Of a DNA stretch of 64,000 bases, positions 2,943-5,527 are shown in pieces (positions within the stretch are counted from its first letter, which is position 1; each line of letters opens with the position of its first letter). The DNA lies in contig CAVUWV010000010.1 of NCBI GenBank assembly GCA_963745075.1, positions 320,001 through 384,000 of the forward strand, read 5' to 3'. The notes beneath the pieces were generated by a model. The model made no database searches. It was given only the letters and a program-made list of their open reading frames with translations, and had not been told where the DNA came from. This stretch comes from Candidatus Hydrogenedentota bacterium (GTDB taxonomy: Bacteria; Hydrogenedentota; Hydrogenedentia; Hydrogenedentales; SLHB01). Both the position numbers and the translations under genes were made by a program.

Positions 2943-3791
2943 GCCCCAACGGGGCTCTGGGCTCTCAGCCCCAGGTTGCGCGGCACGTCGAGCCACGCGA
3001 GACGCAGGCGCGCTACCTGGGGTATGGTTGTGGATATCGATCGGGTTAGCCCAACGGGCTTATGGCCTGTTTGTTACCAAATTGACCCGGGGAGGATTCT
3101 CGCATGCCGCAATCGTTGTCTGCCGTGTTTGTGCATCTGGTCTGGTCCACCAAGGATCGCAAACCGTGGCTACGTGATCCGACGGTCCGCACGCGCCTCC
3201 ATGCGTATTTGGGCGGCGTCTCGCGGGAAATGCAGTGTCCTCCTGTCATTGTCGGCGGGGTGGACGATCATGTCCATGTCCTGGGGCAACTGGGCCGCGA
3301 GGTGTCCATCGCGGGATGGGTGAAGGAGTTGAAGCGCGTTTCCAGCATCTGGATGAAGGACGTCGATACCGAGTTCAAGGGGTTCTATTGGCAGGGGGGA
3401 TACGGGGCGTTTTCGGTCAGCCAATCAAACCTCGCGCGCGTGGAGAAGTACATCGTGGATCAAGAAACGCATCACGCGAAGTTCTCGTTCCAGGACGAAT
3501 TGCGCACGCTCTTTCGCAAACACGGGATCGAGTGGGATGAACGGTATGTTTGGGATTGAGGCCGCAACCCCTTCGGGGTAATCCCTATGATACGCCATCT
3601 TTTCCCCAGGTAGCGCTACGGCGTCGTATCGACACCGCCGCGCAACCACGCCATGGCGTGGCTGAGAGCCCAATGTCCCGTTGGGACACAAGAATTCGGT
3701 GGAGTCGCAATTCCGCAACCCGCAGGGGCTGAGAGCCGGACGTCTTGTTGGGACACAAATCCGAAGCGGAGTTGCAATTCCGCGGTCCGCA
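2943..3791. repeat. REP-like inverted flanks and a ~68-bp tandem duplication around the Y1 transposase
   Basis: GCCCCAACGGGGCTCTGGGCTCTCAGCC (~2943-2970) is an imperfect inverted match to GGCTGAGAGCCCAATGTCCCGTTGGGAC (~3660-3687); the latter unit recurs degenerately at ~3727-3791. Confidence 0.7.
3104..3559 (+). mobile_element. tnpA: IS200/IS605-family Y1 (HUH) transposase, RAYT-like
   Basis: 'VHLVWSTKDR', HUH motif 'DHVHVL', 'WQGGYGAFSVS', catalytic 'YIxxQ'; GGAGG RBS; no tnpB nearby. Confidence 0.92.
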
Positions 3792-3958
3792 CGTCATCTT
3801 CGCGCACGCGGGGACTGAATTCATGCGCCTCGATTTCTTAATTCGTAGTCTGTTAGCATGCATAGGTTGCGAGGTCACTAAGGAAAGAAAAGTGGGAAGT
3901 CTGCCTTACACTAAGTGCAAGGGGCGTATGGAGCGCCCATCACAGAAGGAGACTTCCC

Positions 3959-4984
3959 ATGAACACGACTCAAGCGTATCACTTCATCGGCCTGGACATC
4001 CACAAGCGGACCATTGCGTTTTGCGAGAAGGACCCGTTGGGCAACGTGGCGGATCGGGGGACGATCGGTGCGCGCAAGGAGGAACTGGTGGCGTTTGCGA
4101 CCTCTCGCACGCGGCCCTTCGTCGCGGGCATCGAGGCGACCTTGTTTACCGGTTGGGTCTACGACGCCCTGTTGCCGTACGCAGCCGAGCTTCACGTGGG
4201 ACATCCGCGCCGGCTCAAGGCGCTGTCGAAGAACAAGAACGACCGCATCGACGCCGAAATGCTGGCCAACCTGCTGCGGGCCGACCTGTTTCCCTCGTGC
4301 TACATGGCCTCGGCCGAGGTGCGCGAGTTACGGCGGATTCTGCGGTACCGCAACTTCCTGGTCGGACACGCCACCCGCATGAAGAACAAGGCGTCGGGCA
4401 TTCTGATGGAGACGGGCGTGGAGTACGCCAAATCCAAACTGCACGGAAAGAAGTACTTCTCCGAGCTGGTGGACAGCCTGGAAGACGTGCCACCGTCGGT
4501 GGTCAACTTGTTACGCATGACTCGGACCAATCTCGAATTGTTCACGGCCGCCCAGCGCCACTTGCTCGATGTCTTGACCCGGCATGCCGCCTTGTGCGAC
4601 CGGGTGACCCTGCTCCAGTCGGTGGGCGGCGTGGGCCAGGTTACGGCGCTGACCTGGGCCCTCGAGATCGACGACCCGCATCGCTTTTCCAACATCCGGC
4701 GCGCGCAGAGTTACTGCGGGTTGTGCTCGGCCCAACACGAGTCGGGCGACAAACAGTGGCGCATGCCCTTGTCCAAAGAACGCAACCCCCACTTACAGTC
4801 CATTCTCATCGAAGCGGCCAAGCTGGCGCCGTCCAAACACGCCCACTTGACGCGCATACGCGAGCAAGCCATAGTTCGGGGATACAACAAGAACCGCGCG
4901 ACCCTGGCCGTGGCGCGCAAACTGGTGGCCTATCTGTTGGCCGTGGACAAATCCGGGCAGCCCTTCATAGCGCCCGAGGTGTAG
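3959..4984 (+). CDS. IS110-family DEDD transposase/recombinase
   Basis: 'FIGLDIHK' (D), 'GIEAT' (E), 'KNDRIDA' (D,D); C-terminal 'SVGGVG..TA', 'YCGL.S.QHESG' (Ser) and 'AVARKL'. Confidence 0.95.
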   Translation: MNTTQAYHFIGLDIHKRTIAFCEKDPLGNVADRGTIGARKEELVAFATSRTRPFVAGIEATLFTGWVYDALLPYAAELHVGHPRRLKALSKNKNDRIDAEMLANLLRADLFPSCYMASAEVRELRRILRYRNFLVGHATRMKNKASGILMETGVEYAKSKLHGKKYFSELVDSLEDVPPSVVNLLRMTRTNLELFTAAQRHLLDVLTRHAALCDRVTLLQSVGGVGQVTALTWALEIDDPHRFSNIRRAQSYCGLCSAQHESGDKQWRMPLSKERNPHLQSILIEAAKLAPSKHAHLTRIREQAIVRGYNKNRATLAVARKLVAYLLAVDKSGQPFIAPEV

Positions 4985-4998
4985 GAGGTTTTCACATA

Positions 4999-5186
4999 CG
5001 GTTCTCCTGCCGCCGTATCCCGCCGATTAGGGACTGGGCAAGGGACACAAATCCCGATACCCCCGTAGTCTGTTTCGGGCGCGGCGGCTCTCCCAAACGC
5101 AAACATCGGACCCACGCCGTCAACGTGGTATCTGCAAATGGATGTCTGGTTGCGAGAACCTATCTCGTCAGCAAAACGGAGAACCG
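4999..5186. ncRNA. Candidate bridge/seek-RNA in the IS110 right non-coding end
   Basis: Closed by CGGTTCTCC (4999-5007)/GGAGAACCG (5178-5186); contains exact copies of both element junctions (5064-5074 and 5138-5146). Strand not established. Confidence 0.5.
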
Positions 5187-5527
5187 GAAACGACGTGATG
5201 GCGCGGCGCGCGAAACCAACCCGCGGACCGCGAAGGGGGAGTACTGCCCGAACGACGGCGGCCCGGTCGCACTGCGCTGCCTCCGACGAGCTATACGCAA
5301 GCTACCCATTCTCGGCACCGCACTACGCCCAGGCCGCCTAAGTCTCCGCCCAACAATCAGCTACCTCTTCGCCCCAAAGACGCCCAACCGACGGAATGGC
5401 AAACCGCCCGCTTTGCCTCTTGACTTATACCTATCATGGATGTCCCCAATAAGAAATCGCTATCGCGTCCGCATCGCGGGGCCGGTATCGCTCGGGCGCG
5501 AAGCGGGTTCCCACGACGGAGTGCCGC

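Follow-up and report, generated by a model that had tools for sequence, protein, structure and literature searches.

The non-coding DNA behind an IS110-family transposase gene in the window (the whole stretch of 64,000 nucleotides that we analysed) raises the question of whether it encodes a guide RNA and, if so, which of its parts read which DNA. The original prediction was a bridge- or seek-type RNA of an IS110/IS1111 element, carrying copies of both halves of the donor junction on the same strand in what might be a new architecture. The first part of this prediction stands and the second does not. We find that the segment from 4999 to 5186 (+ strand, 188 nt) is, judging from its sequence, most likely the bridge or seek RNA of a 1.6-kb IS110-family element of the IS1111 type. 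A bispecific guide RNA of such an element is overall the best explanation, at a probability of roughly 0.9, and the segment is very probably a further example of a published guide-RNA design, not a new mechanism.

The gene (3959-4984, + strand) encodes a DEDD transposase/recombinase of 341 aa with the domains PF01548 and PF02371, which scores 188 bits against NF033542 (cut-off 140). D13, E59, D95, D98 and S262 are invariant in 46 homologues of the transposase, and the protein combines the DEDD RuvC domain with the C-terminal Tnp domain and catalytic Ser of the IS110 family. Non-coding DNA amounts to ~460 nt downstream of the gene as against 105 nt upstream, the distribution characteristic of the IS1111 group. 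Among the matches listed, relatives of the transposase in plasmid records reach 56% to one unannotated match and otherwise at most 33%, and the best named relative is ISHvo9 at 30% identity; the annotation of these relatives is mostly just 'IS110 family'. The IS1111 type is the most likely assignment and is based on the tested features of the element rather than on placement in a tree.

The two partners of insertion were fixed by a second copy of the element, an empty site and an end-to-end junction in a homologue: the target reads ..CGTAGTCT-GT-CCC.. and the donor ..ATGGAT-GT-TAGCAT... The second full copy, on contig C29, has new flanks and shows 2 differences in 1608 nt (one substitution and one 1-nt indel). 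Because an empty site on contig C31 carries the flanks of the C29 copy (the long left flank and the first right-flank bases), positions 3844-3851 on the + strand (CGTAGTCT, the same in the C29 copy) are target DNA, a host REP-like left half outside the element; TGT (3851-3853) is common to both junctions, as to target and donor, and the element proper begins at 3854. The left-junction core is GT (3852-3853), as indicated by the C31 site and the L121 junction, and is followed by the donor right half TAGCAT (3854-3859). The right-junction core GT lies at 5442-5443, with the target right half (CCCCAAT) beginning at 5444 according to the second copy and the empty site. The predicted donor junction ATGGAT-GT-TAGCAT occurs as a natural sequence once, in the homologous locus L121, which is a circle or a tandem copy. 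Empty and filled sites compared in this way show a specific target and a short common core with no further duplication, as in the IS110 family. Alternative cores that would place AGTCTGTT or GTC inside the element were dropped, since only CGTAGTCTGTCCC is a repeat among the candidate empty targets searched; their rejection also rests on one copy of CGTAGTCTGTCCC having the flanks of the C29 element.

This empty 13-mer has 12 exact occurrences in the genome, where 0.28 would be expected. Half of these sites (6 of 12) directly adjoin the same RAYT-like gene (PF01797; NF047646 at 75.1 bits, slightly below the cut-off of 80) and others adjoin its remnants, so the target is a REP-like end sequence, a repeat of the form TAATTCGTAGTCT-GT-CCCTGAATT found mostly at the ends of this gene. 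Inside the element lie subterminal inverted repeats of 9 bp with one bulge: ATG(C)ATAGGT at 3858-3867, 7 nt in from 3851, and ACCTATCAT at 5429-5437, followed by the 3-nt extension GGA (5438-5440). They stand 10 nt apart at the junction, and their 7-nt and 3-nt extensions are those of the IS1111 group. The outer 6 bp of the two repeats covary in 38 loci (5.79/6 versus 5.01 shuffled, 0/20000). Joining the ends would bring a predicted -35 box, TTGACT (5420-5425), to 18 nt from TAGCAT, the predicted -10 box, which TGT precedes; a TTGA hexamer stands before the junction end at 17-18 nt in 35 of 38 loci and at 22 nt in 3, TTGA itself being within the search anchor. A promoter scan of the linear element gave nothing relevant, because the junction promoter is absent from that form.

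The guide analysis covered 88 loci with protein identities of 44-100%, of which 80 came from a metagenome scan and 8 from genomes; 78 distant loci (L003-L080, 24-31% identity) were left out of it. The left junction was located in 71 of the 88, target guide B (below) in 74 and the right junction in 53. In covariation tests proteins were collapsed at 97% identity and loci with both parts were kept, and within-cluster shuffles used clusters at 70% identity. The loci are related and many have a single flank. Guides and junctions were located by fuzzy anchors taken from this element, so that the invariance of the core and adjacent bases is partly by construction.

The four strings that first drew attention to the segment are all present. 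CGTAGTCTGTT (5064-5074) equals the left junction at 3844-3854, ATGGATGTC (5138-5146) the right junction at 5436-5444, GGGACTG (5030-5036) the palindrome arm at 3811-3817 and GGGACACAAATCC (5042-5054) the neighbouring REP at 3750-3762. In 3000 dinucleotide shuffles of 4985-5200, counted on both strands, a match of 11 nt to the left junction turned up 2 times, one of 9 nt to the right junction 78 times and the two together 0 times; a 13-nt match to the 145-nt REP region arose in 4/3000. Because the left junction consists of target-left, core and donor, CGTAGTCTGT (5064-5073), which had been taken for a donor half, is instead a target guide, and it varies with the left flank of the homologues. 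This target guide B has the same sense as the target left half plus core and would pair with the bottom strand. Target guide A (TTAGGGAC, 5027-5034) lies upstream of it on the same strand of the element, is the complement of the core plus target right half and would pair with the top strand. Reverse-complement guides, supposed to be missing, are present: TTAGGGAC against the target GTCCC(T/C) and, imperfectly, ACGCAAAC against the donor GTTAGCAT. GGGACTG equals the arm at 3811 because both complement the GTCCC target arm; its final TG is scaffold in 71/73 loci. The 13-nt REP match lies in an unconserved inner hairpin and is found, among the 88 loci, only in the two full copies of the genome analysed here. 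We read it as a coincidence on a conserved GGGA..TCC stem, although the shuffle count (4/3000) is no proof of this. The C29 copy that carries the 13-nt sequence lies far from that REP.

Covariation with ends and targets across homologues, proposed with the original prediction as one way to check it, is found for the target guides, which covary with the flanks. Guide B scored 5.79/10 against its own left flank (52 loci), compared with 3.72 when shuffled overall and 4.51 within clusters (0/20000 each). The signal is at positions -6 to -2 (0.69-1.0 versus 0.28-0.57), with -10 to -7 at chance, and in 26 sister pairs guide B fitted its own flank better in 19, worse in 0 and equally in 7. The complement of guide A scored 5.35/8 against the right flank (40 loci, without L121 and without three loci whose right junction lacks the terminal GT), compared with 3.99 shuffled overall and 4.69 within clusters (0/20000); with wobble pairs the within-cluster test gave 6/20000, and the signal stops at +7. 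Among 20 sister pairs, guide A fitted its own flank better in 10 and worse in 2, with 8 tied. Guide B fits the near-invariant donor-left sequence poorly (2.76/10), a comparison in which the permutation test is powerless. The predicted RNA has, in short, a target loop with two guides, one per strand, that covary with the target as in a bridge RNA, and the top-strand complement (5027-5034) precedes the bottom-strand match (5064-5073) and then the donor pair, the order seen in the IS1111 group.

The proposed ~190-nt segment with a 9-bp closing stem was borne out, with 4999-5007 pairing with 5178-5186 around 188 nt. Eight or nine of the nine pairs are kept in 27/27 sequences, themselves selected with these ends as anchors; the structure alignment comprises 27 of 34 extracted sequences, all from the nearer clade and none from the farther clade. 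The fold of 4985-5200 has z = -2.47, with equally stable shuffles in 1/200. The target-binding arm (5009-5088, + strand) is 80 nt long and consists of a stem, an internal loop and an inner hairpin (5036-5062). Together with the 3' hairpin it is 94% paired, with two-sided change in 42 cells (0/500 shuffles), slid controls giving 43-48%. The CCCGA/TCGGG loop suggested around the left-junction match is not a conserved pairing; CGGG at 5076-5079 pairs instead with CCCG at 5019-5022 across the 27 aligned sequences (98.8% of cells paired). In the consensus fold, both target guides and donor guide A are unpaired. A single-sequence fold buries most guide bases, at an opening cost of 10.6 kcal/mol, and when the guides are held open two guide-bearing loops form, each split by a hairpin. 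RNAalifold favours another 3' pairing (5000-5006 with 5155-5161), of mostly invariant pairs, in which donor guide B is partly buried. Rfam returned 0 matches at E <= 1 for the guide RNA and for the second hairpin described below. No sequencing run matched half of the sequence words, and all six RNA runs matched small shares (0.07-0.11); contigs of relatives in four RNA-library runs span the transposase and the non-coding region alike, a coverage that does not point to a discrete RNA.

The putative donor guides follow in the same order, the top-strand complement at 5097-5104 and then the bottom-strand match at 5138-5145, both on the + strand. Donor guide A is an imperfect complement (6/8) of the core plus donor right half, and donor guide B (ATGGATGT) has the same sense as the donor left half plus core. 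Both matches are present in the putative donor loop. Guide B is identical to the element's own right end in 46/49 loci, but it is near-invariant and partly fixed by the anchors. Guide A scored 4.57/6 in 53 loci versus 3.86 shuffled overall, with a marginal result within clusters (911/20000). By clade, TAGC donors go with the reverse complement ..GC in 27 loci and TTGA donors with ..GA in 19/20, and single TTAA and TTGG donors are also matched. Since the within-cluster signal is marginal, support for guide A comes mainly from one clade switch, TAGC to TTGA, and from the single cases. As read from these sequences, the donor-guide evidence is weaker than that for the target guides.

Each second guide extends one base past the core and there matches the other partner, which is why the strings resemble junctions. 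The candidate handshake bases of the target loop are TT (5074-5075, + strand), assigned by analogy with PMC11208158, the first being donor +1; those of the donor loop are CT (5146-5147, + strand), the first being target +1. U5074 agrees with donor +1 in 53/54 loci, and this base lies within the search anchors; C5146 agrees with target +1 in 42/44 loci, the RNA base being inside the anchor and the flank base outside. Both bases hardly vary. The extra base after each second guide would thus occupy the place of the handshake bases of IS621, where handshake guides are described as pairing with non-cognate DNA after strand exchange and driving insertion (PMC11208158, PMC13626964). In loci L096 and L116, guide A ends GGGTC and the right flank is GT-ACCC; 7-8 nt fit only with a 1-nt shift, and the candidate handshake C mismatches target +1. 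This points to a REP variant with one base more than programmed as the insertion site, or to a tolerated bulge. The second core base also differs in places: the right junction ends GC in L107 and GA in L149, the left being GT, and in L155 both the left junction and the guide carry GA. These three loci suggest that core mismatches may be tolerated.

The ends, the REP-like target, the donor junction, the conserved structure and the change of target guides with insertion site can be read from the sequence itself. The route of transposition would be that known from IS621 and ISEc11. The element would circularise, and the joined ends would form the promoter TTGACT-18-TAGCAT, from which transposase and RNA would be transcribed. 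The target loop would then open the target DNA with one guide per strand, the donor loop would do likewise at the circle junction, and the DEDD/Ser enzyme would exchange strands at the GT core. The post-core base of each second guide, which fits the other partner (U = donor +1, C = target +1), would form a handshake pattern favouring insertion.

A different division of labour is conceivable, in which the working RNA is the 80-nt target arm (5009-5088), the protein recognises the ends via the subterminal repeats and the segments that resemble the donor belong to a precursor or are a relic. This would compete with the donor-loop part of our reading alone, not with the target part. An 82-nt ISEc11 seekRNA is reported to have supported transposition alone (PMC11187229), the arm here is of similar size and self-contained, and donor guide A is imperfect with marginal within-cluster covariation. 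However, donor guide B remains the element's own end in 46/49 loci, with protein identities as low as 48%, the sequence of donor guide A changes along with that of the donor (TAGC/..GC, TTGA/..GA and the singles TTAA and TTGG), and the donor guides share the split-by-hairpin geometry of the target loop. We consider this division unlikely, though the most serious competitor to a bispecific guide RNA.

That both donor halves, or junctions, are read from one strand, with GGGACTG and GGGACACAAATCC as target guides, would explain why two strings are exact copies of the left and right junctions, and few shuffles (4/3000) yield the 13-nt REP match. Yet the empty sites make 3844-3851 target DNA, and changes in the corresponding string go with the flank rather than with the element end; reverse-complement guides exist, the 13-mer is in the RNA of just 2/88 loci, and related RNA-library contigs differ at 5046-5051. 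Such an architecture is therefore highly improbable. Much the same holds for the idea that the matches are relics at the DNA level, internal duplications of the junctions from which no guide RNA is made: the RNA-library contigs give no direct evidence of expression and Rfam holds no match, but compensatory stems are kept and a 5-7-nt window is rewritten with new targets while the scaffold stays fixed. The bispecific guide RNA accordingly remains the reading that we prefer.

Set beside the published IS1111 seekRNAs (ISEc11, ISPa11, ISKpn4 and ISPst6; Siddiquee et al. 2024, PMC11187229), the element shares, as that account describes them, the long non-coding region downstream of the transposase gene, the subterminal inverted repeats, extended by 7 nt at the left and 3 nt at the right, the junction promoter (predicted here), a guide order with the top-strand complement 5' of the bottom-strand match and a transposase of 341 aa within the range of 330-350. 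The target is of REP type as for ISPa11, and the 80-nt target arm resembles the short IS1111 seekRNAs of 82-96 nt (PMC11187229). It differs in its repeats, 9 bp with a 1-nt bulge versus the usual 11-13 (PMC11187229), which is within the 7-17 bp of PMC11208160, and in the C-terminal transposase motif, GLCSAQHESG here versus GL-P----SG (PMC11187229). The non-coding region of ~460 nt and the 30% identity to ISHvo9, the best named relative among those listed, also set it apart. A donor loop is apparent here; none is described in the passages of the seekRNA account that we consulted (PMC11187229).

The RNA would probably work like the IS621 bridge RNA while having the IS1111 features that we tested. 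As described for IS621 (PMC11208160, PMC11208158, PMC13626964), the RNA would have two loops, one for the target followed by one for the donor, and in each a pair of guides overlapping at the 2-nt core; the first target guide is 7 nt plus core, and its covarying span thus has the length of the left target of IS621, in which the core is at positions 8-9 (PMC11208158, Hiraizumi et al. 2024). The base beside the core fits the non-cognate partner, an inferred handshake here, the target is again a REP, and the guide order is identical once read from the opposite DNA strand. In contrast to IS621, the RNA lies downstream of the transposase gene, with respect to which its guides are inverted, GT takes the place of CT as the core, and the second target guide covaries ~6 nt past the core, longer than in wild-type IS621, where the extended guide is an engineered one. 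The putative donor guides lie in a multiloop, an arrangement expected for many IS1111 elements: 93% of these were predicted to have a bridge RNA in their right end, often with donor guides in a multiloop (Durrant et al. 2024, PMC11208160). The IS621 transposase itself is a weak match (34.5 bits, C-terminal part).

The mechanism class is already published, the finding itself is ordinary, and the tables of Durrant et al. may already list this RNA family. Its value is that of a clean natural dataset, in which the target guides of ~50 homologues are reprogrammed, the donor differs between two clades and the ends are defined; this makes the question of seekRNA versus bridge RNA directly testable in one system through donor reading by an IS1111-type element and handshake pairs. 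In the literature searched, largely without subscription papers and supplements, we found no passage that demonstrates handshake pairing in an IS1111 element. It is a speculative proposal, which we hold with little confidence, that the bridge RNA of this clade is complete, with four guides, functional handshake bases, IS1111 orientation and a naturally long second target guide (~15-nt target), and that a second conserved hairpin, carried by one subclade and shared with IS3- and IS481-family elements, is perhaps an undescribed functional IS module. If true, donor reading by RNA would extend to IS1111-type elements and a more specific scaffold would be on offer.

This second hairpin (5257-5338), 82 nt long, follows the guide RNA, of which it is not part, and precedes the right end. 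It has a conserved 38-nt core and freely covarying arms, with two-sided change at 12 of its 25 pairs and 95.7% pairing, and is present in 22/22 TAGC-type and 0/22 other complete elements. In L174 a related core lies downstream of an IS3-family gene and in L182 downstream of an IS481-family gene; further ones occur at multicopy contig ends, among them L186 and L189. The viral contigs searched held no relative of the element and no match to the hairpin.

The genome also holds altered copies of the element. One on contig C23 (G000:C23:101905-103064, L086) is 91% identical, with the right part, including the RNA region, replaced from about position 5009; it lies in a different REP, with the left flank ..ATGGTTACTGT. 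RNA-library contigs of close relatives read GTTA at 5066-5069, the guide that fits this flank. A right-end piece on contig C15 (G000:C15:145532-145877, L198), 88% identical, contains part of the guide RNA and the second hairpin with neither transposase nor terminal repeat, and L176, L177 and L183 are comparable orphans. Upstream of the element in the window, a Y1 (IS200/RAYT-like) transposase gene (3104-3559), distinct from the RAYT-like gene whose ends are the target, has an inverted repeat on either side (3001-3022 and 3604-3625), and two 67-nt-spaced REP-like repeats (3604-3791) lie just upstream of the element. In L095, upstream of the transposase gene, 32 nt separate the right end of one copy from the left end of the copy that follows it, a tandem insertion into adjacent REP arms.
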